The notes beneath the pieces were generated by a model. The model was given only the letters and a program-made list of their open reading frames with translations, was not told where the DNA came from and searched no databases. A stretch of DNA of 64,000 nt from an uncultured Candidatus Saccharibacteria bacterium (GTDB taxonomy: Bacteria > Patescibacteriota > Dojkabacteria > GCA-002793355), in NCBI GenBank assembly GCA_964525295.1, contig CAZGEO010000001.1:248662-312661 (forward strand). Direction: 5' to 3'. A program made the translations under genes and the position numbers. This document shows, piece after piece, positions 21,163 to 54,740 of the stretch. Each line of letters begins with the position of its first letter. Position 1 is the first letter of the stretch.

Positions 21163-22149
21163 TTACGATAAAACTACTAGAAGGAATAATGCAATAAATA
21201 TAGCAATAAATTCTAGAATAACCGAGAATTTCAATGTATTTTGCTCTTTATGAATCAAGTAACCAAAAAGAACATATGTTATTGCAGCCGTAAATAACGC
21301 TCCCTGCCAAATATAGGCAAAGAAAATACTACTTATGCAGCAAATTACCGTAATAAAGAACGATAAAATCAAGCTTAATAGAAAAGATCCACGTTGATAA
21401 GGTAAAAAATACATGAAAAGAACGTTTGAAAGAAGAGCTAAAACACACCACAAAATCAAACAAACTATGATCGCAGCAATATATTGGTCAGACGATATTA
21501 GCGGCATCAAAACGGCATTGGCGGAATATACAGCGAAAAAGGTCGTAACAATACTCCCCAGATATGCGACACTCTCCCCTAACCTACTTAACGGAATAGT
21601 ATAAAAAAGATTGACATTTAGGACATTTACCGCAAGTTCAAAAATGTATAGAAGAACCGTAAAAAAGACTAATGCTGTGAGAAATAATCCTAATAAATAC
21701 ACTCTGTTAATTTGTGTAGAAAATACCTCGGCCAAAAACAAGGAATATGAAAAGGTAAAAATTGATGGTAATGGTAAAGTCGCAAGATATGACTCACGTC
21801 TAATCTGATTTTTTAACCCCCAGATGGTCAAAAGATAGCAGATAACTGCAAGAATTAATGCAATTACTGCCCACATGCCAACAGATTGCATCGTAGGAAA
21901 GATAACAAGTTTCGTAATCCCAAGAAGTGCTGGAATAATTAATGAAACCATCATTAATCGGACTCTTTTTGGCAAATCTTTAAACTGCTTATCTCCTGGA
22001 GACAACAATACCAAAAAATTCGTACGGAGTTGCTCAAGTTGGTGTTTAATATGAACAACTGGCGAGTCGTCTTTCTCAAGTAATTTTGAAGTATCTGTGA
22101 CGACAACCGATTCTCCGCGCCTTGTATTGATTTCTGGATATTGTTGCAT
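21163..22149 (-). CDS. Polytopic membrane protein, hypothetical
   Basis: About 90-aa soluble N-terminus followed by about 7 hydrophobic helices. Confidence 0.5.
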   Translation of the reverse strand: MQQYPEINTRRGESVVVTDTSKLLEKDDSPVVHIKHQLEQLRTNFLVLLSPGDKQFKDLPKRVRLMMVSLIIPALLGITKLVIFPTMQSVGMWAVIALILAVICYLLTIWGLKNQIRRESYLATLPLPSIFTFSYSLFLAEVFSTQINRVYLLGLFLTALVFFTVLLYIFELAVNVLNVNLFYTIPLSRLGESVAYLGSIVTTFFAVYSANAVLMPLISSDQYIAAIIVCLILWCVLALLSNVLFMYFLPYQRGSFLLSLILSFFITVICCISSIFFAYIWQGALFTAAITYVLFGYLIHKEQNTLKFSVILEFIAIFIALFLLVVLS

Positions 22150-28285: not shown

Positions 28286-29341
28286 TTATTCCTCTTGATA
28301 CAACATCCGATCCAATCGTTCAAATACACCTAAAGACGGGGAATTCTTTGCATTCGATACAGATGATAATAATGTCATAAAATCTTGCATTCTTGGCATT
28401 CTAGAAAGCAATTCACGCATAATTTTCTGCCCTTGTAAGATAAGCTCTCTTTCTTTATTATGCAATTCCGCTTTTTCGTTGAACTTTCGCTTCTGCTCTT
28501 CGATAAAAAATCGAGCTTTCTCAACATTTATCTGATTGCCAGCTGGCAATAGCATTACTGTCAATTGCCTATTTTTTGCTAATTTCACTGTTTTTTCACC
28601 CTTTGCAAGATACTCTTCTAGCTTTGGCACTTTCGTTATCCCTGCAGTTGAAATTACCTCTTCATTCAAACTTATCGCAGAAACATTCTTTGCTCCCAAA
28701 GATTCTAGTGCTAGTGTTAAAAACCTACTTGAAGCGGGGTATATCGCCAATACAGGAACGTCAATGATTTCGGGATTACTAATCAAACGTTCTATCGTAT
28801 TTACAATACTCGTTTTCCATTTTAAAATTTTTACTGATTGTTCATGCGCATATTTTTGTATGAGAAATTGTTCTAATTGCATTTTTCTTATAACTTCGCT
28901 TTCAGTCGGTTTCTCAGGAAAATTTCTAAATGAAACAAGTGCGTTAGCTCGCTTCTCAGGCGTTCTTGAAAACAATTCTGGTCGTGCAAGATGCATCTTT
29001 AGTAGATATAACGAAGATACAACACTACCATCTTCTAAATAAATTTCACCGTTGGCAAAAAGGTATTTCTTGAACCCTATTGCTGATTCACCTCCAGGAT
29101 AATACGTTCGAGTTGAATAGGCATACAGTAGAAGATCCAACGGGTTTTCAGGTTGTAATACTTCAGGAATAATATTTGGCGGGCAAATTATTGACTCACT
29201 ATTGCCTTTTTGTACCGCTGATTTTACAGCATGAACAAGTCCAGCAAATCGAAGTTCAAATTCACTAATGATACGTGGAGCAGGATTTCTCGAATAATCG
29301 TGTTTAGTATTTGGCTGCCCTACGTGCATTTTACAAAGCAT
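28286..29341 (-). CDS. Hypothetical protein (351 aa)
   Basis: ORF only. Confidence 0.4.
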   Translation of the reverse strand: MLCKMHVGQPNTKHDYSRNPAPRIISEFELRFAGLVHAVKSAVQKGNSESIICPPNIIPEVLQPENPLDLLLYAYSTRTYYPGGESAIGFKKYLFANGEIYLEDGSVVSSLYLLKMHLARPELFSRTPEKRANALVSFRNFPEKPTESEVIRKMQLEQFLIQKYAHEQSVKILKWKTSIVNTIERLISNPEIIDVPVLAIYPASSRFLTLALESLGAKNVSAISLNEEVISTAGITKVPKLEEYLAKGEKTVKLAKNRQLTVMLLPAGNQINVEKARFFIEEQKRKFNEKAELHNKERELILQGQKIMRELLSRMPRMQDFMTLLSSVSNAKNSPSLGVFERLDRMLYQEE

Positions 29342-29918
29342 AAACTTGCATTGAAACTGCGCCTTCTCTATCTGTAGCTTCTATTTTTTTAATTGTGACT
29401 TTTTCAACTTCCTTTACTTCAGAAATTCCACTCTTCTTCTTATATTCTTCTGTAACTTCTGGCAAAATCACGTAAAATGGCTCCATATCTAATTGTGATG
29501 ATGCCAACGAAGTATCTTTACCAACAATTACGTCAATTGGAGAATACTGCTTAACAAAATTATCTCCAGGTGCGCACGCAATGAAACCTACAGTACCTTC
29601 AGGAGTTTCTAAAACATAATGTGCCATTGCATCTAGGCTACTGCCTTTTAGGTGTACTTCGCCTACTCTATATTCTCCAGGAGTCAAAATGATTACAATC
29701 TCTCGTTCTTTTTTTAATTTCTGTGAAAGCACATCCCACGCAAGGAATTCCTCGGTTGAAAGAGCTTTTGCCGTATTTACCAACACGAGCTGTACCCCTT
29801 CAGGAATTTTCTCAGAAATATCGCTTGTATTTGCGATTGGTTCAATAAACCAGGCGACTTTCGTATCACGTACTTCAAGAATAATTGCATTAGATTTTTT
29901 ATTTTTTGTGATTTGCAC
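29331..29918 (-). CDS. Hypothetical protein (195 aa)
   Basis: ORF only. It overlaps the upstream gene by 11 bp, suggesting co-transcription. Confidence 0.4.
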   Translation of the reverse strand: MQITKNKKSNAIILEVRDTKVAWFIEPIANTSDISEKIPEGVQLVLVNTAKALSTEEFLAWDVLSQKLKKEREIVIILTPGEYRVGEVHLKGSSLDAMAHYVLETPEGTVGFIACAPGDNFVKQYSPIDVIVGKDTSLASSQLDMEPFYVILPEVTEEYKKKSGISEVKEVEKVTIKKIEATDREGAVSMQVYAL

Positions 29919-29998
29919 GATATTTCAGTTATTAAGTAAGCAGATGATTGTAGCGTGTAACAGCCACTTTTGCAATTAATAAAATGCGTTTGCTGGCC

Positions 29999-30229
29999 CT
30001 ATCGAAGTAATTCTGAGAGGTTCTCTAAAGAAGCCATAACCTGATCTTTAGTATATTCTTCAACCAGAGTAATTTTTGATGATTCTAGTGAAGAAATAAT
30101 TGCTGTTACTTGAATAAGTATCTGTTTCGGTGGAAGCTTCTCTTCTTCAAGCATTTTTTGAACTGCACGTAACTGCCCTTCAATTCGTTTCAGGCGAGTT
30201 ATCATCTGTTCTTTTGTTTCCTTCTTCAC
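29999..30229 (-). CDS. CsoR/RcnR/FrmR-family (DUF156) transcriptional repressor lacking the canonical Cys/His ligand residues
   Basis: TRLKRIEGQLRAVQKMLEEE matches the family RLxRIEGQxRG signature, and the size of 76 aa fits. The protein contains no Cys or His at all. Confidence 0.65.
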   Translation of the reverse strand: MKKETKEQMITRLKRIEGQLRAVQKMLEEEKLPPKQILIQVTAIISSLESSKITLVEEYTKDQVMASLENLSELLR

Positions 30230-30241
30230 TATTCATTATAC

Positions 30242-30257
30242 ATACCCCCGGGGGTAT
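30242..30257. promoter_or_regulatory. Perfect 16-bp palindrome ATACCCCCGGGGGTAT (candidate CsoR-family operator) in the divergent intergenic region
   Basis: Lies 13 bp upstream of the repressor start codon. CsoR/RcnR operators are G/C tracts flanked by AT-rich inverted arms (established knowledge). Confidence 0.55.
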
Positions 30258-30325
30258 ACGTCAACCGCCAGAATGCATCGATTTTTACAATTTGCGCCAC
30301 AAAATTGAAAAGCGTATAATTAACA

Positions 30326-30913
30326 ATGTCAGAATTAGTGCCCTTTCAACGCAAGCGAAAAAAATTACTACCAATCACAATTACCCCACTTCAAGCAGTT
30401 TCTGATGAATTATTGGTTTATTTATCTGAGAAATTTCCCCAGTATCTTACTTTTGTAGAGAATTCTGACAAAAATTTCATAAAATATTGCGATGAAGAAA
30501 AGAAGACACTTTATAGTGTGCAATTACAGGATGTTCCACGCCCCGTGGAGCTTGCTCGCATAATTGCCCCTGTAACCTCTCCTGAGTTAATTAATGACTC
30601 TACACTACCCTGGACACTTCATCGTCTTGATTCACCAGTTATTGTCCTTTGCTTTCTTGCACAAAAACTATCTGTTGCAAAACCTATATGCCTACTACCT
30701 AAGCCGTATCAAGCGATGATGAGAAAAGTCTATAGTGATGTAAGTATTCGAAATGCGCTTGCTATAAACATCGCCTCAGCCAGACGAGCAAGTAAGTATT
30801 TAAGAATACTGCAAAAGAGATTGGGGATTTATCCTAAGAAAAAAACACCGTTTAAGGTCGATCTTGTAAAAAACGCAATTGCTCCTCTGACAGAAGTGCG
30901 TGTAGAAAATTGA
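30326..30913 (+). CDS. Hypothetical protein (195 aa), divergent from the CsoR-like gene
   Basis: ORF only. The 3' end overlaps the convergent gene by about 60 bp. Confidence 0.4.
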   Translation: MSELVPFQRKRKKLLPITITPLQAVSDELLVYLSEKFPQYLTFVENSDKNFIKYCDEEKKTLYSVQLQDVPRPVELARIIAPVTSPELINDSTLPWTLHRLDSPVIVLCFLAQKLSVAKPICLLPKPYQAMMRKVYSDVSIRNALAINIASARRASKYLRILQKRLGIYPKKKTPFKVDLVKNAIAPLTEVRVEN

Positions 30914-31994
30914 TCAATTTGTTGCCTGAAGTTCTTCGTAAAATATCATATACCGCTGGATTGTTTCGTAATAATCTCGATATTGCTTTACGTGCAACCA
31001 TAGGCCTGACGCCAGAATGATAATTGAAATGTGGCGCCAACTGCTTCAAGCGTAATGCAATCTTGGTTTCAAGATCGTCAAGAATTTCTTTTCGATCACG
31101 ATTATTAATATCGGCGCCATCTAGCGATAAACGCGTCCATCTGGCGATCATTTTTTTCAAATTATTATCAATTTTCGACTTCATTTTGAAATGTTCAAGA
31201 AGCATTTCTGGGCCTACTAGCAACAGCTTCCCTTTCTTATGTGCTTCTATCAGAATCTCATCGTCATCAAATAGTGAATTCGTTAATGGCATTTGCTTAA
31301 CGTCGCTAAAATGCAATTTTTCAAGAGCTTCATGTACTAAATCAAGTCGAGGACGCCAGCCATTATCATTCTTTGTAATAATTTCAGGCAAATTGAGTAA
31401 TTTATACGTTTCGTAGGAATGTTTCTGCGGTAATTCTGACTCGTAATCATCAAGTGCTTTCCTTTTTGCAATTCCTGAATCAACAAAACCATTCTGTACT
31501 TTACAAAGTAATGAATTTACCTTAAAGAATGAAAACAGGCCCTGATCGACGTCATGAAATAGTTTAGGTGCAATTTGTGATTCTACATCTTCTTTTGTAA
31601 TTTTCTTGTTCGCCCAAATATATCCAGTTGTTACACACGATGAATAAGGCCCGCGGTCTGATAAAACAATAATTGAAGGATCTTCAGCCAATATGTTTTC
31701 TACCAGCAGAAGGGCGATACTACGATCAAGAGCATACATAGTACCGCGCACACGAGCTTCTTCTATACCGGTCATTTCATCAAATACATCTGCACAAACA
31801 CCACGAGTCATTAATCGAGTGTCGTGAGCAAAAAACCAAAACTGTGGAAAATTCATCAACAAAATCTTTCGATTTGGTTCCGTAATAACGAGATATTTTG
31901 CGATACTTCGGACCAGATCATTTTTACCTACAGAGTCTCCCCCTTCAATAAACATCGCCGGATACAATGGCTGAGGGATTAGCTTTCTACTCAT
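30852..31994 (-). CDS. P-loop nucleoside/nucleotide kinase-like domain (thymidylate-kinase/dNK-like) fused to about 180-aa C-terminal extension
   Basis: MFIEGGDSVGKNDL is a deviant Walker A (IEGxDxxGK). VLSDRGPYSSCVTTGY resembles the TMK DRY..S..AY motif. Confidence 0.5.
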   Translation of the reverse strand: MSRKLIPQPLYPAMFIEGGDSVGKNDLVRSIAKYLVITEPNRKILLMNFPQFWFFAHDTRLMTRGVCADVFDEMTGIEEARVRGTMYALDRSIALLLVENILAEDPSIIVLSDRGPYSSCVTTGYIWANKKITKEDVESQIAPKLFHDVDQGLFSFFKVNSLLCKVQNGFVDSGIAKRKALDDYESELPQKHSYETYKLLNLPEIITKNDNGWRPRLDLVHEALEKLHFSDVKQMPLTNSLFDDDEILIEAHKKGKLLLVGPEMLLEHFKMKSKIDNNLKKMIARWTRLSLDGADINNRDRKEILDDLETKIALRLKQLAPHFNYHSGVRPMVARKAISRLLRNNPAVYDILRRTSGNKLINFLHALLSEEQLRFLQDRP

Positions 31995-33277: not shown

Positions 33278-34504
33278 CTATATGAAGATTGTCCATTCAG
33301 TCTGCTCTTCCTCTTCTCTGGCTCCAATGGTTAGAGCATTGGCTATAGTATGTCTACCCCATTTTCGGTTTATACTATCAATTACCGAACTTACCTGTTC
33401 TTCACATTTCTTTGCATTCTCGATTTTTGCAATATCTTCAAAAAGACCTAATTGTCGATGCTCTTTTGGCATGAGGTCAAATAAAAACACACCTGCACGC
33501 TTCACGCTTGCCCCTTCTGGATATATTTTCTCTAAATGGTCTGTAACAAATTTTGTAAATGCCGGAGTGTACGCAGTTGCCGGTGCAAGCGGTGCAATAA
33601 ATTGTTTCGCAAGATATCCTCGTTCTTTATGAAATCTGTTCCCACGCACGAATATTCCCATTTGCCCAGCTACTTCACCATTCTTTCTTATATGATAGGC
33701 TGCCTGTGAGGCAAACTTATGCAGAATTTTTTCTAATTCATCTTTGTTCGTAATTTCGGGGGTAAATGATCGTGTTACCATCGTTGATTTCTGAGCTGGA
33801 GGACGATCTTGTAAATTAAAACAGGAAACTCCATTTAATTCATTAATGGTATTTGACAAGGTAATCGAAAACTTTTTGCGAAATTGCAATGGATCTTGCG
33901 CAGCAAGCTGCGCAGCTGTTGTTATGCCATACAATGGCAATTTCGCAGCTAATGCCCAGCCAACTCCCCAAATATCTCTAATAGGAAAGGTTTCAAGATG
34001 AGGTTGCCAACTACTTTTACTTTCGAGTAGTTCAACCCCATTTTCTTTTTTCTTTGCTAATTTCACAGCAACTTTTGCGAGTGTTTTTGTTGGAGCTATT
34101 CCTACAGATACGGGAACTCCCGTCCATTTTAGAATTTTTTGGCGAATTACTTCGCAATGTGCTAACAAATCTGCTGAATTTTTTGGAAAAAAAACAAAGC
34201 TCTCATCAATAGAATATTCTTCAACAAATGGAAAGTTTTCATGCAAAATACTTGCTATTCGTCGAGAGAGATCTCCGTATAACTTAAAATTTGTTGATTT
34301 TACTTTCACTTGCCCAAGTTGCAGCTGCTCTTGAATCTTAAATAATGGTGCTGCCATTTGAATGCCTAGTGCTTTCGCCTCATTTGATCGAGCCAAAACG
34401 ATTCCGCCTGGATTTGCCACTACCACCGGAACATTCCGTAATTCTGGATGAAATACTCTTTCGCACGACACATAAAAGTTATTTGCATCAAAGACTGCGT
34501 ACAT
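33278..34504 (-). CDS. umuC: Y-family translesion DNA polymerase, UmuC-like (Pol V catalytic subunit)
   Basis: MYAVFDANNFYVSCERVFHPELRNVPVVVANPGGIVLARSNEAKALGI closely matches the UmuC N-terminus. Confidence 0.85.
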   Translation of the reverse strand: MYAVFDANNFYVSCERVFHPELRNVPVVVANPGGIVLARSNEAKALGIQMAAPLFKIQEQLQLGQVKVKSTNFKLYGDLSRRIASILHENFPFVEEYSIDESFVFFPKNSADLLAHCEVIRQKILKWTGVPVSVGIAPTKTLAKVAVKLAKKKENGVELLESKSSWQPHLETFPIRDIWGVGWALAAKLPLYGITTAAQLAAQDPLQFRKKFSITLSNTINELNGVSCFNLQDRPPAQKSTMVTRSFTPEITNKDELEKILHKFASQAAYHIRKNGEVAGQMGIFVRGNRFHKERGYLAKQFIAPLAPATAYTPAFTKFVTDHLEKIYPEGASVKRAGVFLFDLMPKEHRQLGLFEDIAKIENAKKCEEQVSSVIDSINRKWGRHTIANALTIGAREEEEQTEWTIFI

Positions 34505-34541
34505 TACTAATTATCAATTTTTAATTACTAATTTTCAATTA

Positions 34542-35438
34542 TCAAACCCACAACTTCGCGTTGTCATAGTATCGCCAAATTTTAAATCCTAATCGTTCAT
34601 AGAACTCTATCTCGTATGTCCACCCAATATACACATATTTTCGCTTACTATCTCGAATTTTTTCTGTTCCCCAGGCTTTCATTGCAGAACCTACTCCTTT
34701 TCCTTGCCAGGCTTTACTTACGCCTAAGGCAGCACCTCCTCCGACGCTATTTTCGAACAATTCACGCCAAGTACAATCATCACGCCAGAGCTGACTTACT
34801 GCAATAACCTCTTCACCATGATATGCCAAAAAAATTTTCTTGAAATTTTTAGCTTTTACTTCTTTCTCATAATACTCTAGCCAGTTTGGAAAATTCTCTG
34901 CAACAAATGAAAGTATTTTTTGTGCCCATTTACTATTTGCAAAGCTTATTTGAATAGATTGCTCAATCATTCTTTCAAATGTTCCTCCAGGTGTTACAAA
35001 ATTTGTAACATCTTGGCACATGTCAACAGGGCCATCCTCTGAAATTTTGAAACCACATTTCTCAAAGAAGTTTGTGCAATTCAAATTTTGCGGAATTCCT
35101 GGCCAAAAATAACCTCCAGCGCCGGCCCCAATAGTTATTTCGGTTGCTCCTTTCTTTTTTAACCACAATAACGCTTCAGCAAGTAACTTACTACCAATTC
35201 CTTGTCGCTGGCATTCCTTAGCCACTAGAATAAGCGAAATGACCCCTAAATGATTTTTAATTTTTGCAACAACGAAACCTTCTAGAATATCATCGGAAAG
35301 CATGGTTATCACAGTAGTTTCGACATTTGCCTCATCTGAACCTGAAATAATTTTATTAAATTTTTCCTGCGGTATGGGCCATAATTGATATGTCAAAGAA
35401 GTTTTATACAATTCGTACAATTTTTGATTTTGTGTCAT
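34542..35438 (-). CDS. GNAT-family N-acetyltransferase (two-lobed, about 298 aa)
   Basis: The acetyl-CoA-binding motif QRQGIGSKLL and a second motif QGKGVGSAM indicate a tandem GNAT. Confidence 0.7.
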   Translation of the reverse strand: MTQNQKLYELYKTSLTYQLWPIPQEKFNKIISGSDEANVETTVITMLSDDILEGFVVAKIKNHLGVISLILVAKECQRQGIGSKLLAEALLWLKKKGATEITIGAGAGGYFWPGIPQNLNCTNFFEKCGFKISEDGPVDMCQDVTNFVTPGGTFERMIEQSIQISFANSKWAQKILSFVAENFPNWLEYYEKEVKAKNFKKIFLAYHGEEVIAVSQLWRDDCTWRELFENSVGGGAALGVSKAWQGKGVGSAMKAWGTEKIRDSKRKYVYIGWTYEIEFYERLGFKIWRYYDNAKLWV

Positions 35439-35441
35439 ATG

Positions 35442-35882
35442 TTATTGTACCTGTAAATTGTGAATGACAAAGGTTACAACTCCCCATATTTCGACTTGCA
35501 TACCATCACGAATTTCGATCGGTTGGTATTTTTCATTTTCTGCAATTAACATAAGGTGATCATTTTTATATCCTACTCGTTTTACAGTAAATTCTCCATC
35601 TATAACCGCAACAACTATAGCACCATCTATTGGTTCTTTTGAGCGATCTACGACGAGCAGATCACCAGAAAAAATTCCTGCATTTATCATGGAGTGCCCT
35701 TGAACGCGAACATAATAGGTGGCTGCTGGGTGTTCTACGACCATATCATTCAAATCGAGCATTTCTTGTGAAAAATCACCTGCTGGAGAGGGAAAACCTG
35801 CTGGAACGCGCGAAATCACAACCCTTTCTAGACGTTTATTTACCTGCGCTTTTACCCTACTTTGTGTCTTTTTCTTTATCAT
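35442..35882 (-). CDS. umuD: UmuD-like S24 self-cleaving peptidase (Pol V accessory subunit)
   Basis: PAGFPSPAGDFSQEMLDLNDMVVEHPAATYYVRVQGHSM parallels the UmuD CGFPSPAADY...HPSATYFVKASGDSM, including the Ser nucleophile. The Lys lies in the EFTVKRV region. Confidence 0.8.
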   Translation of the reverse strand: MIKKKTQSRVKAQVNKRLERVVISRVPAGFPSPAGDFSQEMLDLNDMVVEHPAATYYVRVQGHSMINAGIFSGDLLVVDRSKEPIDGAIVVAVIDGEFTVKRVGYKNDHLMLIAENEKYQPIEIRDGMQVEIWGVVTFVIHNLQVQ

Positions 35883-45430: not shown

Positions 45431-45838
45431 ATGAAATTCAAACAACATCCCGAAAGAACACTACGACACTTAGTTTCTGCACCGTTTATTTATTCAATGT
45501 TTTTTCCTCTGTTGGTGCTCGATATTTGGGCTGAAGTATACCATCGCGTCTGCTTTCCTCTTTATGGCATTCCTTATGTTACTAGGTCAAAATATATCAG
45601 AATCGATAGACACAGATTATCATATCTAAGTTGGCCAGAACGCGTTAACTGTATGTATTGTGGCTATGCCAATGGGTTACTCGCATATGTTGGCAAAATT
45701 GCAGCAGAAACAGAAAAATATTGGTGTGGTATAAAACATGATCGTTCTATTGGTGAACTGATAGAACCAGAGCATCATAAAGATTTCATCGAATACAACG
45801 ACGAAGAGGCTTACAAAGAAATTACACCAAAAAAGTAA
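45431..45838 (+). CDS. Small Cys-containing hypothetical protein
   Basis: CMYCGY...WCGIKH. Hydrophobic N-terminal segment. Confidence 0.4.
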   Translation: MKFKQHPERTLRHLVSAPFIYSMFFPLLVLDIWAEVYHRVCFPLYGIPYVTRSKYIRIDRHRLSYLSWPERVNCMYCGYANGLLAYVGKIAAETEKYWCGIKHDRSIGELIEPEHHKDFIEYNDEEAYKEITPKK

Positions 45839-47605: not shown

Positions 47606-48529
47606 TTATTTTTTGATTCTCTTTGCGACTATCGTATAGCCCCAGTATGCTGCGCCAACAATTGCAATCACAGGTACAAAGACAACTACGTAGATCAAAG
47701 CCTTAACAACGCCATCTGTGAATGAAACCAAACTACGTACAGCTGACTTGAATGTTTTTGCAACTTCAAAAGTTCCCTCTGGAACATATGGCAAACTATA
47801 CTCATTTGTACTGAGGTAAATGGTGAATTGAGTATTCTGTGATAATTCATCGAGTGCTCGTTTGTTCCCCTTTAATGCATCAATTCGTGCTTGTGTTGAA
47901 TCTAATTGTGTCTGAATTCTCAACAAATCTTCAACACTCTTTGCCTGTTTATAATAATCTTTAATTTTTGCATAAGTCTCTTCATACTGCGCGAGCTCCC
48001 TTTCGATATCGCTATATTGTTGTGATACTTGGTATGAATTAACATTTCTATCAACAATCTTTATTGCCTTTTCACTCGCAAATTTCAAAAAATCATCTGC
48101 CGACTTATTAGGAATCAAAACCTGTAAACTGCCATTTTCTGCATTGTTGTCGGCACTTTTATTGATTGATTCATTCATTACCTTTCCTGATAATGCCGTT
48201 ACATAAACTTTTACTTCTTCTACATAACCACTAACACTCTTAACATGAGCACTAAGATAGTTCGTTGTAATTTGGCGATCTTTTGTTGCATTACCTACAA
48301 CCATTGAAGAATCGGCAGTTTTGACGAAACTTGTTGCTGGAGCATATGATGCGCCTGACGATTCAGTTTGCATGTAAGAGTAATCATAAGAACGACTAGA
48401 TGAGTAATTCGAGTTAATCTGAGAAGCACCAAAAATTACGATACCTAAAACGACCATTCCACCGAGGAAACCATAAATGAACTGCTTTTTCGATACAAAT
48501 CCTGCCTGAACTGCTTCTTTTACTTCCAT
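47606..48529 (-). CDS. Hypothetical membrane protein (N-terminal TM, coiled-coil, C-terminal TM pair)
   Basis: Architecture only. Confidence 0.4.
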   Translation of the reverse strand: MEVKEAVQAGFVSKKQFIYGFLGGMVVLGIVIFGASQINSNYSSSRSYDYSYMQTESSGASYAPATSFVKTADSSMVVGNATKDRQITTNYLSAHVKSVSGYVEEVKVYVTALSGKVMNESINKSADNNAENGSLQVLIPNKSADDFLKFASEKAIKIVDRNVNSYQVSQQYSDIERELAQYEETYAKIKDYYKQAKSVEDLLRIQTQLDSTQARIDALKGNKRALDELSQNTQFTIYLSTNEYSLPYVPEGTFEVAKTFKSAVRSLVSFTDGVVKALIYVVVFVPVIAIVGAAYWGYTIVAKRIKK

Positions 48530-48558: not shown

Positions 48559-49368
48559 CTACACCCAGAATCTTGCTCGTGCAAGAAATTCTTGCTCATG
48601 TATATTTCCTAATTGCCACTTTTGAGGAGTGATTTCGTCCAATTCTTGCCACTCAAATGGTACAGAGATGGTAGGTTTGGTATATGCACGAAGCGAAAAG
48701 GGAGCTACATTAGTTGCACCACGGCTATTACGTAAATAATCGATAAATATTTTTTCTTTCCGTTCTTCTTTTTTTATTTCTACGGTAAATAACCGAGGAT
48801 ATTTAGTTGACAATGAAAGTGCGATATCTTTTGCATCGGAACGCACTTCATCCCAACCCGCCCGCCCATTCCTCGGTACTTTTATATGATATCCTTTTAT
48901 TCCTGATGTCTTTACAAAATTTGGAAAACCTTCCCACGTTAACCTTTCGTGCAACAACCATGTTGCTTCTTGTAACCTTTCTATCGTTACTTCTGGCCCC
49001 GGATCTAAATCAAAAATCATCGCGTTTGCCATATTCGGTGACTCTGGTTTTGCATGCCATTGATGAAACTCAATTGTTCCGATATTCACTAAATATTCAA
49101 TATCTTCGTATGAATCGAGTAAAATATACACGCCACTCCCCTCTTTTTCGGCGACTCGAACACGCTCAATATATGCAGGAAAATACTCCTGAGGATGACG
49201 TTGATAAAATTTTGGAGAAGCCACCCCTTCAGGAGCGCGAACCAACGAGACGGGGAAATTTTTCAAAAAAGGTAACATAGCAGGTGCAACATATTTATAG
49301 TATGCAGCAATCTGTTCTTTAGTATGACCAGTTTTTGGAAAAAGAATTCGTGTTGGGGAAGTTAGCAT
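48559..49368 (-). CDS. LigD-type primase-polymerase domain protein (NHEJ PolDom / AEP superfamily), stand-alone
   Basis: RILFPKTGHTKEQIAAYYKYVAPAMLPFLKNFPVSLVRAPEG...MIFDLDPGPE...FVKTSGIKGYHIKVP matches LigD polymerase-domain motifs, including the DxD and the SGxKGxH region. Confidence 0.65.
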   Translation of the reverse strand: MLTSPTRILFPKTGHTKEQIAAYYKYVAPAMLPFLKNFPVSLVRAPEGVASPKFYQRHPQEYFPAYIERVRVAEKEGSGVYILLDSYEDIEYLVNIGTIEFHQWHAKPESPNMANAMIFDLDPGPEVTIERLQEATWLLHERLTWEGFPNFVKTSGIKGYHIKVPRNGRAGWDEVRSDAKDIALSLSTKYPRLFTVEIKKEERKEKIFIDYLRNSRGATNVAPFSLRAYTKPTISVPFEWQELDEITPQKWQLGNIHEQEFLARARFWV

Positions 49369-49416
49369 ACGATCATTGTAATTGACCGCAGTTATTTGTC
49401 AATCACTAAATCGGTA

Positions 49417-50640
49417 TTAATTACTACGTAAAGCCTCAATTGGCGACAATCTACCTGCTTGAATTGCTGGATACAATCCAAATACGATACCGACGACCGA
49501 AGAAACCCCGAGTGAAGTGATTATTGCTGAAACTGAAACATATAAGGGCAAACCACCGACCTGTTCAATAATGATAGCACCTGTACTTCCAATAATAATT
49601 CCTAAGATACCTCCGATGAGCGAGAACAACACTGATTCAATCAAAATCTGTGTTTGAATCGCTTGATTCGTAGCTCCAATCGCTTTACGCAAACCAATTT
49701 CTTTAACTCTTTCTTTAACAGAAACAAGCATAATATTCATAACGCCAATTCCACCGACAACCAATGAAATTGCTGAAATGACCGAGATGAATAGTGTTAC
49801 CGTTCCTAAAATTGTATTTGATGTTTCGATAATTTCTGCCTGTGTCGTAATAGTAAAGTCAGACTTTTCTGAAGGTAAAATTTTACGCTCTGCACGAAGC
49901 ACTTTGTCGATTCGTGTCTTCAATTCAGGAATTGCATTTTCATTTGCTGCAGTAAAAAGAATTGACTGTACTCTATCTGCTTTTCGATAGACATCACGAT
50001 ACGTCTTAGTATCCAAATAGGTCTCAAAAGTATCACCTCCACCGAAAGTACCCGCAGCATCTTCGACTACACCAACGATGGTGAATTCATATCCTTGCAA
50101 GGTAATCTTCTTACCTACAGGATCTTGCAATTTGAAGAAACGATTTTTCGTTGATTCACTAATTATAGTTTCTCTACTACCTTCGCTGCTTGCTCTAAAA
50201 TATCGACCGCTTTGCAAAGGAAGATCAATGATTTTGAAGTATCCAGGATCAATCACAAATACAAGAGAATCTTCTTCCTGATTACCGTAGCTCAGCTTGA
50301 AACTTGCAATTTGTCGTCTTGAAATGTTTGCAATATTGCCCTCTTTAACTTTCATAATTGCATCATAATCTGCATCGGTCAGCGAATTTAACACTGAACT
50401 AAAACTGAAACTTATGCCACCGCTTGAACTTTGCTGTCCAGGTTGAACAACGAGAAGATTTTTTCCTAATCGATTTGAAATACTTTGATTAATCAACTCT
50501 TGCGCGCTTCCACCGATACTTACCATCATGGTTACGCTAGCAATGCCAATAAGAATCCCTAAAATCGTTAAAAATGAACGAACCTTATTCGCTAGAATAT
50601 CTTTGAGTGCGATTTTTACAAATTTGAAAAGGTTATTCAA
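49417..50640 (-). CDS. ABC transporter permease, MacB/FtsX family
   Basis: N-terminal TM, large periplasmic domain, and C-terminal FtsX-like 3-TM bundle. Confidence 0.85.
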   Translation of the reverse strand: MNNLFKFVKIALKDILANKVRSFLTILGILIGIASVTMMVSIGGSAQELINQSISNRLGKNLLVVQPGQQSSSGGISFSFSSVLNSLTDADYDAIMKVKEGNIANISRRQIASFKLSYGNQEEDSLVFVIDPGYFKIIDLPLQSGRYFRASSEGSRETIISESTKNRFFKLQDPVGKKITLQGYEFTIVGVVEDAAGTFGGGDTFETYLDTKTYRDVYRKADRVQSILFTAANENAIPELKTRIDKVLRAERKILPSEKSDFTITTQAEIIETSNTILGTVTLFISVISAISLVVGGIGVMNIMLVSVKERVKEIGLRKAIGATNQAIQTQILIESVLFSLIGGILGIIIGSTGAIIIEQVGGLPLYVSVSAIITSLGVSSVVGIVFGLYPAIQAGRLSPIEALRSN

Positions 50641-51313
50641 TTTTACCGTCTAAAATCTTAATTTGTCTTTGTGCATGTGATGCAATTTCGTTATCATGTG
50701 TAATAAGAACAATAGTTTTACCCATACTTTGCAACTTTTCAAAGATTCCTAATACAACCTGTCCTGTTTTTGAATCCAGGTTTCCAGTTGGTTCGTCTGC
50801 TAACAGTAATTCTGGATCAGCCATAAGAGCTCGAGCAATCGCTACTCTTTGTTTCTGTCCACCCGAGATTTGCGAAGGCAGATTGCGAGCTTTATCTTCA
50901 ATGTCGAGAAGTTTCAATAATTCCATTGCTCGTTCCGTTGCATTTTCAACAGGTACATACAAAGTTGGAAGCAACACATTCTCAAGTACTGAATATCTTT
51001 CAAGTAAATTGAAGGACTGAAAAATGAAGCCAATCACTTTTCCTCTATAGAGAGCAAGTTCCTTATCACTTAATGCTTTAACGTCCTGACCTGCGAGTTT
51101 ATACATTCCAGAGTCGTATGTATCTAAACATCCAATGATATTCATTGCTGTTGATTTACCACTACCAGAAGGGCCAACAATCGCAACGAATTCACCTTTT
51201 TTTACTTGCAGCGAAATGTTATCAAGAGCATGAAAATCAAGCCCTTCATTTCGGTACCACTTATCTAGATTTTTAATGTCAATAACTATTTCTTGAGCAA
51301 TTTTTTCAGCCAT
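50633..51313 (-). CDS. ABC transporter ATP-binding protein (MacB/LolD-type)
   Basis: Walker A GPSGSGKST, signature LSGGQKQRVAIARAL, and Walker B LLLADEPTGNLD. Confidence 0.9.
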   Translation of the reverse strand: MAEKIAQEIVIDIKNLDKWYRNEGLDFHALDNISLQVKKGEFVAIVGPSGSGKSTAMNIIGCLDTYDSGMYKLAGQDVKALSDKELALYRGKVIGFIFQSFNLLERYSVLENVLLPTLYVPVENATERAMELLKLLDIEDKARNLPSQISGGQKQRVAIARALMADPELLLADEPTGNLDSKTGQVVLGIFEKLQSMGKTIVLITHDNEIASHAQRQIKILDGKIE

Positions 51314-52449
51314 GGTCGTAATGCAATAATTTGTTTTGGTTCTTCTTTATCAATAATTACTTCTGCTGGAGTTTCTAGACCTTCAGTAATTTCTACTACA
51401 TCCTCTCCAATAATACCAAGAGTAATAGTCTTTCGGACAGCAGTTCCATTTTCAAGTACCAATAGTGAGCCTTTCGAGAATGATTCAATAGTTACAGCAT
51501 CGAATGGTACTGTGGCAACATTTTCTTTGCTTGCGATAACAATTGCGCCTTCGAGTTTCCCACCATAGGGAACTTCTGCAGGAAATTCTTTCAATGCAAT
51601 CGTAACTTCGTAACTTGGCGCATCAACTGCACTTGACGCAGAAGGTGTCATGGAAACATGTGATACGACTCCAGAAAATTCTTTGTCGGTCACTCTACTA
51701 CGAATTGTAACTGGCATATCTTTTTTGACTTGTGCAATTTCTTGTTCTGACAGGCTAATAACAATGCGAGCATCAGAATCACTTACAATAATCAAATAAT
51801 TACCACCAGAAGAAGAAGAACTAGAGCTAGCTCCCATCGACAATGAGCTGATTCCTAGCGAAGCTGGAAGTGATGAGGAACCTGAAGCTGACATATTCTT
51901 ATCATTTTGATACACCGTAAGAACTTTCCCATCAAATGGTGCGAAAACTTTACGCTTATTTAGATTTAATTCCGCATTTTTCATTTGATAATATGCAGCA
52001 TTGACCTGCGCTTGAATTTGAGAAGCTGAAGTTGTTGAAGGTATCGTTACAGTTGTTGGAACTCCTGGAATTCCTAAGTCTGGAATCGAAATTGATGTTC
52101 CAGCTGAAGCTGCGTTTTTTGCTGCTGCTGCTGCACTATATGATGCTTGCGCAGCTTTATACTGGTTATATTCAGATTCATCTTTCATTTCTACAATCAT
52201 TTCACCTTTTTTAACCGAGTAACCTTCACGAACGTTAATACTTTTGATATCACTGAATGCTCCGAGTGAAATTTTCGTATAGCTAACTGGATACCAATAA
52301 GTGGTGAAGTCAATTTCCTTTGCGACATTCCCTGAAGATGGTTGTTGAGTCTTATATGTCTCAACTGTTTCAAATCGGAAAAGTGTTGCTAAGATTAAAG
52401 CAACAACCACAAGAGCAGTAATAATTACTTTTACAACTTTTTTGTTCAT
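51286..52449 (-). CDS. HlyD/MacA-like periplasmic adaptor (membrane fusion protein) with internal poly-Ser tract
   Basis: N-terminal TM, lipoyl-like and beta-barrel regions, and a SSSSSSS run. Confidence 0.7.
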   Translation of the reverse strand: MNKKVVKVIITALVVVALILATLFRFETVETYKTQQPSSGNVAKEIDFTTYWYPVSYTKISLGAFSDIKSINVREGYSVKKGEMIVEMKDESEYNQYKAAQASYSAAAAAKNAASAGTSISIPDLGIPGVPTTVTIPSTTSASQIQAQVNAAYYQMKNAELNLNKRKVFAPFDGKVLTVYQNDKNMSASGSSSLPASLGISSLSMGASSSSSSSGGNYLIIVSDSDARIVISLSEQEIAQVKKDMPVTIRSRVTDKEFSGVVSHVSMTPSASSAVDAPSYEVTIALKEFPAEVPYGGKLEGAIVIASKENVATVPFDAVTIESFSKGSLLVLENGTAVRKTITLGIIGEDVVEITEGLETPAEVIIDKEEPKQIIALRPWLKKLLKK

Positions 52450-52587
52450 GGTCCTGGATTATATCACTATAGGAATATCTGCTTCAATACTCTACACACA
52501 AAACCAGATAAACACTATCGACTTCATTACTTCACGCAGAATAAATACCACTTGCCATATAGTTGCAAGAGCACAAGCAAGGTGCAG

Positions 52588-53313
52588 TTATTTTGTGAGC
52601 AAACCTCGCATAACTTCCGCCAAGGAAGGCTGTTCTATGCTCAATACCCGCAAACGAGAACGCTCATATGCTGAAATAAGCACCACTTTATGACCAAAAA
52701 CGAGAACATTGCAAACGGCACCACGAATATGGACCGGCGAATGTCTGAATGAATACCAAGAAAAGCGTGTCATCTCTTCAGCTGGCCCTTCAGGACCGTA
52801 CTCTTTAAAAGAAAATCCTTTAAATAACTTCCTGTTAAAAACTAATGGACGAATTTCTGAAATCTTTTTACTTGCATTCAAAATGATAAACGAAACAACT
52901 TCTTGTGCACTGGCTGCTTGATGATACACTTCGAGTACAGCATCTACTCCTTCTTCGATAGTTACATGGATTGTACCTGCTTTGTTAATATCTCCCAACG
53001 CTTCAGCTTCATCAAGTAATCCAGCAAGCATTTCTCCCGTTGATTCAGCTTCTTGTAAACGCGACTGCACAATTTGTTTCAATTTTTCGTATTGACAAGC
53101 CATAATTAGTCTTTTACCTGCGCGCTGTTCTTCTTCAAGCAGTTTTTCTTCTAGCAATTGTTCTACATGAAAATGAACTGTTGGCCTTTTCATGCCAATT
53201 CTTGTAGCTAGTTCCATTATCGTTGCTGGACCATGTTTTGATAAATCAGCGAAAAGTAAAACTTGCTGTTCTTCTAAACCAATATTCTTTAAAATTTTTT
53301 CAAGACGATCCAT
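52588..53313 (-). CDS. Winged-helix transcriptional regulator (TrmB/ArsR-like N-terminal HTH)
   Basis: LLFADLSKHGPATIMELATRIGMKRPTVHFHVEQLLEEKLLEE. Confidence 0.6.
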   Translation of the reverse strand: MDRLEKILKNIGLEEQQVLLFADLSKHGPATIMELATRIGMKRPTVHFHVEQLLEEKLLEEEQRAGKRLIMACQYEKLKQIVQSRLQEAESTGEMLAGLLDEAEALGDINKAGTIHVTIEEGVDAVLEVYHQAASAQEVVSFIILNASKKISEIRPLVFNRKLFKGFSFKEYGPEGPAEEMTRFSWYSFRHSPVHIRGAVCNVLVFGHKVVLISAYERSRLRVLSIEQPSLAEVMRGLLTK

Positions 53314-53335
53314 AAGAAAGTATATGATGACAGGG

Positions 53336-53365
53336 CGTACATGTCAACATGCGTTGACATGTACG
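53336..53365. promoter_or_regulatory. Perfect 13-4-13 inverted repeat CGTACATGTCAAC-atgc-GTTGACATGTACG plus a third half-site downstream
   Basis: Lies between the divergent regulator (start 53313) and the 448-aa ORF. TACATGTCAA recurs at about 53388. Confidence 0.55.
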
Positions 53366-53393
53366 CAAGAAAGCCCTCCGGCAAGCACATTAC

Positions 53394-54740
53394 ATGTCAA
53401 GCATACGCAACACAAAAGTCATTCCACACAGCTTACACATCTATGCTAAAATCACATTCTGCCCAAACAAGTGTAATTCATACATACAATCTACAATTAT
53501 GGAAGCAAAACTACTACAAAAACCCGCGCAAGAGCGCCTAATGCAAACGACTAACACCTTTTACTCCATCATAGAAGGATCCTTAAAAGACGGAATTACC
53601 CTTGATTCCCTCAAACAAGAAGTAATAAAAAAAGCCGAAGAAGATATTGCCAAACATGGGCAACAAAACAACAAAACACAAAAAGGAGTGAACGCTCAAG
53701 TTATAAATCTCTTGATTCTTCAAACACTTGCACTCAAATCAACAAATACAGCTGAATCTATTAATGCAACCCAAAGTGCTCGAGAATCACAATCAGTAAA
53801 CATAGCCGATTTCGAAGAACAGATACTCCCATATGACCGCCTCCTATTGCAGAAGCTCAACGACGCCATTGATACACAGAAACTCGAAGCATATCTTACT
53901 ACTGTACGCCAAGAGCTTTCTGAATACAAAGGAAAACGTCGAAAACACGCTATTGCGTTAATAAACGGCTTTACACTTGCAGGAAAAGGCACCGCCATGA
54001 AGGCAAACAACATATCGGCCGTTGAAACAGGCACAGAAGGAATCGTTGGAGCAAATGATGACTATGCTCATTGGGCCGAGGTCATGAATTATTATGATAT
54101 CCCAAGACACAATTCAGATTATTATCCTGACAATCTCATGATTTTAGCAATTGCAATGGAACTTTCTGCACAACGTCAGAAACTTGACAAAGACCCCACA
54201 AAAATCGATTCTCCAGTATTTATTAGTGGATTTCCACGCACTGCAGGGCAAGTAGCGTTTCTCGCAGGTATACCGACAAACCAAGTGGTTCCTCCTTTCT
54301 TTTTTAGATTGAATGCAAAAACCGCCTTAACGAGAACAATTTATCGAATGTTCCAAGATTACACTAACATTGCACTTGAGTTTGATTGGCGAACCGACGA
54401 CCTAAAATCCATAGAATCAGAAGAGCTTTCACTTAATGAACTCAAAAATGCGCTACTCATTGAATTTAATTATCTAAACGACAAATATCCAGACAAAAAT
54501 CTCGAGAACGAACAGAAAATTAATCAAGCCCTACATGAATTCATAGACGTTTTTAAACTGAACTTGGGCAATAAGGCCCGTTGGCATCGCGACGAAGGCC
54601 GTATGCGTGGAGTTATCGAACAATTCAGCCAACGATTTCCAGAGCACACAAAAGCGATTGCCATCGTTGATGTAGACGAGTTATCGAAAGAGCAACAAGC
54701 AGCAACACTACGAGATTTTCTGAATCGCTATGTTTCTTAG
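53394..54740 (+). CDS. Hypothetical protein (448 aa)
   Basis: ORF only. The real start may be the internal Met MEAKLLQK (about 53496), since the annotated ATG sits inside the third operator half-site. Confidence 0.45.
   Translation: MSSIRNTKVIPHSLHIYAKITFCPNKCNSYIQSTIMEAKLLQKPAQERLMQTTNTFYSIIEGSLKDGITLDSLKQEVIKKAEEDIAKHGQQNNKTQKGVNAQVINLLILQTLALKSTNTAESINATQSARESQSVNIADFEEQILPYDRLLLQKLNDAIDTQKLEAYLTTVRQELSEYKGKRRKHAIALINGFTLAGKGTAMKANNISAVETGTEGIVGANDDYAHWAEVMNYYDIPRHNSDYYPDNLMILAIAMELSAQRQKLDKDPTKIDSPVFISGFPRTAGQVAFLAGIPTNQVVPPFFFRLNAKTALTRTIYRMFQDYTNIALEFDWRTDDLKSIESEELSLNELKNALLIEFNYLNDKYPDKNLENEQKINQALHEFIDVFKLNLGNKARWHRDEGRMRGVIEQFSQRFPEHTKAIAIVDVDELSKEQQAATLRDFLNRYVS

Follow-up and report, generated by a model that had tools for sequence, protein, structure and literature searches.

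A solitary LigD-type polymerase in a Patescibacteria genome, with a predicted gap- and end-filling role independent of Ku

What does a polymerase of the LigD type do when neither Ku nor a ligase is encoded beside it? The question is raised by a 64-kb stretch of bacterial DNA (hereafter the window, about 10% of a 659-kb contig), in which an open reading frame (ORF) on the reverse strand at 48559-49368 encodes a stand-alone LigD-type polymerase of 269 aa (a PolDom, or Prim-PolD-like archaeo-eukaryotic primase (AEP), here called Pol). In a previous reading of the letters alone (the sequence-only reading), this ORF was described as a solitary LigD-type PolDom gene lacking Ku or ligase, possibly a repriming or gap-filling enzyme and, together with UmuDC, part of an unusual damage-tolerance toolkit. 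We followed up that description with Pfam, NCBIfam and PDB matches, residue mapping, an AlphaFold model, a strain comparison and an analysis of gene contexts.

The ORF starts with ATG and occupies exactly the interval given for the solitary gene. Its product matched PF21686 (LigD_Prim-Pol) over residues 16-258 and profile positions 1-245 of 254 (E 7.4e-73; 245.7 bits, cutoff 27.4), which was the sole Pfam match in the protein, and scored 258.6 bits with TIGR02778 (ligD_pol, NCBIfam) against a curated cutoff of 214.7. Full-length LigD models matched the POL segment only and scored under their cutoffs, because the protein holds the POL part alone. The short N-terminus, common to Pol and its two closest homologues, is real, since a TGA lies 11 codons 5' of the ATG and there is no in-frame alternative start between the two. 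Among solved structures, the most similar was the Methanocella polymerase of non-homologous end joining (NHEJ) (5dmu, 3e-50), followed by the Pseudomonas LigD-POL (2fao, 1e-41), the Mycobacterium tuberculosis PolDom (2iru, 4e-37) and the M. smegmatis Prim-PolC (5op0/6sa0, 3e-29). Relatives in the species-representative genomes scanned, a set that does not include the genome of the window, were only 34-42% identical (Nitrospira, Clostridia and others).

The active site appears complete. We aligned Pol with 119 homologues and four solved PolDoms, and transferred to it the residues characterised in the PolDoms of M. tuberculosis (Mt) and Pseudomonas aeruginosa (Pa), the roles of which are known (PMC7072297 and PMC7442782). 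The catalytic triad corresponds to D120, D122 and D210 (Mt D137, D139 and D227), the first two being invariant in the 124 aligned sequences and the third kept in 123 of them. The contacts with the 2'-OH of ribonucleotides (rNTPs) map to H102 and T219 (Mt H111/T236), the template wedge and its basic residue to F54/Y55 and R57, the NTP site to S155, K158 and H161, the loop-2 arginine to R203, and the 5'-phosphate (5'-P) pocket to S4, R7 and K17 (Mt N13/K16/K26). All of these were identical or conservatively substituted relative to the Mt/Pa PolDom, so that the alignment of catalytic residues suggested by the sequence-only reading left the Asp triad and the rNTP-selecting His and Thr intact. An AlphaFold2 model built on a 61-sequence alignment reached a pLDDT of 94.1 and a pTM of 0.90, and Foldseek superposed it on 5dmu and 2fao with template-modelling (TM) scores of 0.89-0.91 and root-mean-square deviations (rmsd) of 1.6-1.7 A. 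Family, fold and residues thus bear out the LigD-type PolDom identity.

A strain variant from another sequencing run (L001), 98.5% identical to the window over the region, showed 9 nucleotide differences in the Pol gene. All nine were at third positions and all nine were synonymous, an outcome with a probability of about 1e-6 under neutrality. The Pol gene is therefore under purifying selection and, with its catalytic residues intact, does not encode a pseudo-enzyme, a candidate ruled out by residue conservation and by the synonymous-only strain differences; on these grounds Pol is predicted to be a catalytically competent enzyme.

We looked for the usual partners over the whole window. Pfam scans covered 40 ORFs (30 from 2-36 kb and 10 from 45-55 kb), and a six-frame translation of all the DNA, independent of ORF calls, was searched with Ku and ligase seeds and, in a second search, with hidden Markov models (HMMs) of Ku, ATP-dependent ligase (LIG) and phosphoesterase (PE) built from loci where those genes flank a Pol gene. 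None of the three was found in the 64 kb. The best HMM E-values were 0.5-6, which is noise, as compared with 1e-63 to 1e-144 in the positive loci; for Ku, the best was 0.5 against 1e-113 to 1e-133 in the positive controls. Thus, the orphan status of Pol holds across 64 kb, and the lack of Ku or ligase beside the gene noted from the sequence alone is confirmed on that scale. For reference, Ku and LigD lie within 10 kb of each other in 75% of conventional NHEJ genomes (PMC7719229).

This solitary condition is shared by a whole group of related proteins. In a neighbour-joining (NJ) tree rooted on Prim-PolC, Pol grouped with P0002-P0007 and P0010 in a monophyletic clade placed inside the LigD-POL radiation, with Prim-PolC outside that clade. 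A profile of eight clade sequences recovered about 45 further PolDom-only proteins of 262-312 aa before fused LigD architectures appeared. Across the clade, the members of which are only 38-66% identical, 58 columns are invariant and the catalytic, NTP-, template- and 5'-P-binding residues are kept throughout; Pol also carries a clade-specific invariant segment, HPxE.FP.YIERV. We gathered 11 independent clade contexts (the window, L015, L016, L019, L025, L027, L028, L029, L030, L031 and L047), most of them spanning 7-10 kb on each side of Pol, and Ku, LIG or PE was present in none of them (0/11). In contrast, LIG, PE or Ku was fused or adjacent in 20 of 25 informative loci outside the clade (Fisher p = 7e-6), as in L017 and L018 (PE-LIG|POL), L023 (PE|LIG|POL) and L022 (Ku|PE-LIG|POL). 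Solitary PolDoms were also found outside the clade, in a Paceibacterota metagenome-assembled genome (L020) and in a soil group (L042-L044). The Pol clade is thus deep, PolDom-only and, in the contexts gathered, consistently without linkage to Ku, ligase or PE. An origin from a phage or another mobile element was considered and rejected, given the conserved chromosomal synteny, a flat GC content (0.34-0.41) and the finding of no Pol relatives in viral contigs.

The genome is a small one. The threonyl-tRNA synthetase encoded in the window had its closest named relatives in Candidatus Dojkabacteria / WS6 (62-67% identity), followed by other Patescibacteria, by which the host is assigned to the Patescibacteria (Candidate Phyla Radiation, CPR), with Ca. 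Dojkabacteria as its nearest named relatives. The exact Pol protein was found on an NCBI contig of 659,080 bp, and its 54% identical homologue (L015) on an ENA contig of 668,260 bp (ERZ21878301 contig_2). Other genomes with a clade member include GCA_034680565.1 and a 1.14-Mb contig of ERZ25039495. The window itself (about 38% GC, range 0.34-0.41, no compositional islands) is densely packed with housekeeping genes and genes without a Pfam match.

The subtype of the enzyme bears on its possible function. The hallmark of the Prim-PolC subfamily is Loop 3, a C-terminal element (residues 313-333) by which it is adapted to gaps of 1-3 nt (PMC7442782). Pol has no such loop: its chain ends at residue 269, about 13 residues past the core, and the TM score normalised to the target (TMt) against Prim-PolC was only 0.72-0.76. 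Moreover, no LigC-type ATP-dependent ligase adjoins Pol in the window or in the clade contexts. Because of the missing Loop 3, the absence of a LigC neighbour and a greater distance from Prim-PolC than from NHEJ polymerases, Pol is classified, from these sequence features, as LigD/Prim-PolD-type and not as Prim-PolC. Pfam disclosed no zinc-finger or helicase module, and 269 aa leave no room for one. With nothing beyond the PolDom, PrimPol-style repriming is not indicated; gap or end filling is better grounded, because the LigD-type 5'-phosphate pocket and the loops recognising gaps and recessed ends are kept. Of the two activities proposed in the sequence-only reading, gap filling is then the one favoured, and "unusual" was an overstatement, since stand-alone LigD-POL homologues are well established (PMC4176160, PMC5663958, PMC7072297).

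We believe, with a probability of roughly 0.55, that Pol is a functional stand-alone LigD-type polymerase that would fill short gaps or extend ends at 5'-phosphorylated discontinuities, probably with ribonucleotides and independently of Ku, leaving the nick to a ligase encoded elsewhere. Most likely, it belongs to a polymerase lineage, found in small Patescibacteria-like genomes, in which the physical linkage to Ku, ATP-dependent ligase and phosphoesterase was lost. A mechanism can be proposed from the conserved residues and from the structures of Mt and Pa PolDom complexes. Near the N-terminus, the pocket formed by S4, R7 and K17 would dock the 5'-phosphate of a recessed end or gap, F54/Y55 and R57 would splay and hold the template, and R203 in loop 2 would help to accept the primer. 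D120, D122 and D210 could then, with Mn2+, add a few nucleotides to the 3'-OH so as to fill a short gap or extend a break end; ribonucleotides would presumably be preferred because of H102 and T219. The nick would be left for a ligase from another locus to seal, the likeliest candidate being the housekeeping NAD+-dependent LigA. Such a Ku-independent "ribo-patch" polymerase for gap and end filling would suit cells in which deoxyribonucleotides (dNTPs) are scarce. It is from this comparison that we infer what the substrate and the ligase partner are, that rNTPs are preferred and that Ku is not required; gap filling with rNTPs outside NHEJ has precedents among LigD-like POLs (PMC5663958, PMC7442782, PMC4176160).

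Pol seems to have a promoter of its own. In the 48-nt gap after the preceding MacB gene there is a sigma-70-like promoter, recognised by consensus match only (TTGACA-16-TACAAT, 49375-49402, reverse strand; 11 of 12 matches), the -10 box of which ends 6 nt before the ATG, and no Shine-Dalgarno motif precedes that ATG. Given this spacing and the missing Shine-Dalgarno motif, Pol is probably transcribed on its own, as a leaderless message. The same layout (a promoter with at least 9 of 12 matches and a -10 box ending 4-10 nt, mostly 5-6 nt, before the start) was found at 19 of the 62 gene starts of the window, with 9 of 879 internal ATGs for comparison (p = 9e-18); a Shine-Dalgarno-like motif was present at only 3 of 62. 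Further examples of the layout are at 53319-53347 (reverse strand), upstream of 4874 (forward) and upstream of 43024 (reverse). Leaderless gene starts, judged by this layout, look general across the genome, and this spacing between -10 box and ATG recurs in several members of the Pol clade. The -35 box and spacer of the Pol promoter are overlapped by an imperfect inverted repeat, GTAATTGAC-N11-GTCAATCAC (49378-49406), which could speculatively be an operator; the motif is not above chance (2 matches, with at least 2 in 9 of 100 shuffles). As an operator shared with other genes (e.g. an SOS box) it was rejected, being absent at the umuD-like, Y-family polymerase, TrmB and transporter promoters. 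A separate, perfect 14-nt inverted repeat (GCGTACATGTCAAC / GTTGACATGTACGC, 4-nt spacer, 53335-53366) overlaps the -35 box of the promoter of the TrmB-like regulator, in the divergent intergenic region with an ORF at 53394-54740, and could be an autoregulatory operator.

Pol is flanked, as the sequence-only reading had it, by a membrane protein and an ABC transporter. On the same strand, 29 nt downstream, lies the gene of a DUF4349 membrane protein (47606-48529). Upstream, and of interest as context only, are the genes for a MacB-type permease, an ABC ATPase and a YknX/HlyD adaptor (49417-52449), preceded by that for a TrmB-like helix-turn-helix (HTH) regulator, the whole set spanning 49417-53313 on the reverse strand. 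Since no terminator-like site was found between Pol and the DUF4349 gene, and since the two overlap by 10 nt in the 54% relative, Pol is possibly co-transcribed with the DUF4349 gene in this lineage. The order of transporter and DUF4349 genes is common only to the window and to that relative, which is syntenic over the whole region, and the other nine clade contexts lack this neighbourhood; as it is limited to two syntenic genomes, we do not read it as functional coupling. The TrmB-like regulator was also discarded as a conserved partner shared with L025, because only the HTH was similar (E 0.002, 20% identity).

Repair genes recur near the clade polymerases. In L025 (2256-4447) there is a tight same-strand cluster in which an AlkD-type "DNA_alkylation" gene (E 6e-60) is followed, after an 18-nt gap, by Pol and, after a 1-nt gap, by a DUF2461 gene (E 5e-67); this may be an excision-repair operon and a lead on the function of DUF2461. 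In L019 (484-1420 and 8206-8952), a truncated Y-family polymerase (IMS_C + DUF4113) is convergent with Pol at 42 nt. The contig of this clade member (P0004) also carries parts of a diversity-generating retroelement (bAvd and reverse transcriptase) about 6 kb from Pol, and an AbiEii gene. The same-strand order Pol, variable gene, RarA/MgsA was found in L027 (10001-12836), L030 (60-3275) and L047 (9965-13152), the Pol proteins of which are only 46-64% identical and the middle gene of which is homologous only between L030 and L047; in L027, there is in addition an S24 peptidase 2 kb from Pol. No RarA was found in the window. The UmuDC genes claimed in the sequence-only reading are present there as an S24 (UmuD-like) gene (35442-35882) and a Y-family polymerase gene (33278-34504), 13-15 kb from Pol. 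Within 33278-35882 (reverse strand), a tandem-GNAT acetyltransferase gene (34542-35438) lies between the genes of the UmuD-like S24 protein (146 aa, without an HTH) and of the Y-family polymerase (408 aa); the latter two genes are direct neighbours in the 54% relative. Taken together, the recurrence of repair genes near the clade polymerases is suggestive, although the loci are few and not all independent.

Other features of the window are recorded here for completeness. Several long ORFs had no Pfam match at E <= 0.001 (e.g. 8700-11228, reverse strand, 28286-31994 and 21163-22149), with lengths that include 842, 351, 380 and 328 aa; long uncharacterised ORFs are typical of CPR genomes. In GyrA (15701-18676, forward strand, 991 aa), the topoisomerase domain is preceded by an N-terminal extension of about 117 aa, and the DNA_topoisoIV match falls into two stretches, which suggests an insertion, with no intein domain detected by Pfam. 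There is also strain-level variation: L001 (10734-11741) carries a 335-aa gene of the aminoglycoside phosphotransferase (APH) family, whereas the corresponding site in the window (45431-45838) and in L002 is occupied by a 135-aa ORF or a 61-aa called gene.

Several points weigh against a Ku-independent gap- and end-filling role. Ku and an ATP-dependent ligase may lie in the rest of the genome, about 600 kb or more, beyond the window. Pol lacks Loop 3, through which a PolDom has been shown to become adapted to short-gap repair; with its break-synapsis loops kept, it resembles an NHEJ polymerase in sequence more than it does a dedicated gap filler. The enzymatic role of the clade members is deduced from their sequences, and the CPR affiliation, shown for the genome of the window only, is deduced for the others from compact, hypothetical-rich contexts and from contigs of about 1.1 Mb. 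The repair neighbours, finally, are anecdotal: they come from few loci, some of them related by synteny, and none in the window is nearer than 13 kb. The main alternative, which we consider rather unlikely, is a split-gene NHEJ: another part of the chromosome would encode Ku and an ATP-dependent ligase, possibly together with PE, and Ku would bring the unlinked PolDom to double-strand breaks in the manner of LigD-POL. It would agree with the greater proximity of Pol to bona fide NHEJ polymerases (5dmu 3e-50, 2fao 1e-41) than to Prim-PolC (3e-29), with the retention of the 5'-P pocket and of loops 1 and 2 for break synapsis (PMC7442782), with the well-documented existence of separately encoded LigD domains (PMC5663958, PMC7072297), and with the consecutive Ku, PE-LIG and POL genes of one relative (L022), situated in a compact region rich in ribosomal genes; the window, moreover, covers only about a tenth of the contig. 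These arguments are offset by the absence of Ku, LIG and PE from all 11 clade contexts when non-clade relatives are nearly always fused or adjacent to them, by the 75% of conventional NHEJ genomes that keep Ku and LigD within 10 kb, and by the association of NHEJ with large genomes (PMC7719229), the contig here being of 0.66 Mb.

The other explanations fare worse. A PrimPol-like function in damage tolerance, i.e. repriming or translesion synthesis at stalled forks together with the UmuD-like/Y-family pair and RarA, seems improbable. The AEP fold with its complete active site would allow it, and the Y-family polymerase adjoining Pol in L019, RarA/MgsA in three clade loci, the S24 peptidase of L027 and the UmuD-like and Y-family genes of the window provide some circumstantial support, but the protein has PF21686 and no zinc-finger, helicase or other accessory domain by Pfam, its conserved 5'-phosphate pocket points to gapped or recessed substrates and not to bare single-stranded DNA, and its associations with neighbouring genes are scarce, arise in part from common synteny and do not extend to a RarA in the window. 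That Pol might serve its operon neighbours (the MacB-type ABC exporter and DUF4349) and not DNA repair is very improbable: the same strand, the gaps of 48 and 29 nt, and the TrmB-YknX-ABC-MacB-Pol-DUF4349 order, kept in the 54% relative together with the Pol/DUF4349 overlap, are countered by the restriction of this arrangement to two related syntenic genomes, with nine other clade contexts lacking these neighbours, by the near-consensus promoter of Pol itself and by the conservation of all its DNA- and NTP-binding residues. Equally hard to sustain is a decaying remnant of a lost NHEJ operon, devoid of current function. It might be suspected from the solitary position, the reduced genome, the shortest domain form and the want of an N-terminal strand before the LTxP motif, but it is effectively refuted by the intact frame, the catalytic residues kept, the 58 invariant columns, the 9/9 synonymous strain differences and a clade that is both deep and widespread.

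If Pol is, as we favour, a gap- and end-filling enzyme working without Ku, some consequences follow. The usual description of Patescibacteria is one of reduced gene repertoires. A polymerase that is maintained by selection and consistently unlinked across a deep clade of small genomes suggests a Ku-independent job, which would add to the evidence from PolD1/PolD2 and Prim-PolC that repair with ribonucleotides is a general function of LigD-like polymerases, not one confined to NHEJ. As a wider and more tentative proposal, the Patescibacteria-associated minimal LigD-type polymerases may be permanently split from Ku, PE and ATP-dependent ligase and carry out Ku-independent ribo-patch filling, passing the nicks to the NAD+-dependent replicative ligase. 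This, if true, would be a repair strategy for ultra-small, nucleotide-scavenging cells with scarce dNTPs, and would break the usual association of NHEJ-type enzymes with large genomes. If, on the other hand, genes for Ku and a ligase lie elsewhere, Pol would be part of an ordinary split-gene NHEJ system, whose presence in an unusually small genome would extend the known distribution modestly. The 269-aa Pol also represents a compact natural "minimal PolDom" for biochemical study. A search of the literature found no paper on NHEJ-type enzymes or LigD in CPR, Patescibacteria or Dojkabacteria.

Among known systems, the closest in family and fold are the LigD-POL/Prim-PolD enzymes (Mt Rv0938 PolDom, P. 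aeruginosa; 2iru, 2fao, 3pky; TM 0.88-0.91), with which Pol shares the Asp triad, the rNTP-contacting His and Thr/Ser, the aromatic wedge with its basic residue, the 5'-phosphate pocket and the loop-2 Arg. Unlike them, it is neither fused to nor beside LIG, PE or Ku; it is minimal in length, begins at the first conserved motif, carries the HPxE.FP.YIERV segment and is missing the insertion that the Mt PolDom has between H111 and D137. The best match in both sequence and structure is the NHEJ polymerase of Methanocella paludicola (5dmu; E 3e-50, TM 0.89, rmsd 1.7 A), likewise a stand-alone polypeptide. The partners of the Methanocella enzyme, namely Ku, ligase and PE, are encoded by separate genes, whereas no such partner is visible for Pol in the window or for its clade in the contexts.

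By description, Pol also resembles the mycobacterial PolD1/PolD2, stand-alone LigD-POL homologues capable of templated and non-templated addition, with a preference for rNTPs and no demonstrated NHEJ role (PMC4176160). These coexist with complete Ku/LigD in large actinobacterial genomes, in contrast to Pol, the only PolDom seen in a genome of about 0.66 Mb or more. Prim-PolC (MSMEG_6301; 5op0, 6sa0) has the same core fold and 5'-P pocket and offers a plausible functional analogy, in that its rNTP gap filling is tied to excision repair and one clade member directly follows an AlkD-type glycosylase-family gene; Pol differs from it in the absence of Loop 3 and of an adjoining LigC-type ligase, and in the weaker sequence match (3e-29). 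More generally, stand-alone LigD domains have been noted "in several bacteria" (PMC7072297) and Prim-PolC is itself stand-alone (PMC5663958). A survey of about 6,000 complete genomes classed 10.3% as "LigD only" and those with POL or PE but without LIG or Ku as NHEJ-negative, and associated NHEJ with large genomes (PMC7719229). Stand-alone PolDoms being thus already known (PolD1/PolD2, Prim-PolC, archaeal Pol), the new part is a modest one, namely a CPR-associated and consistently unlinked clade of them.

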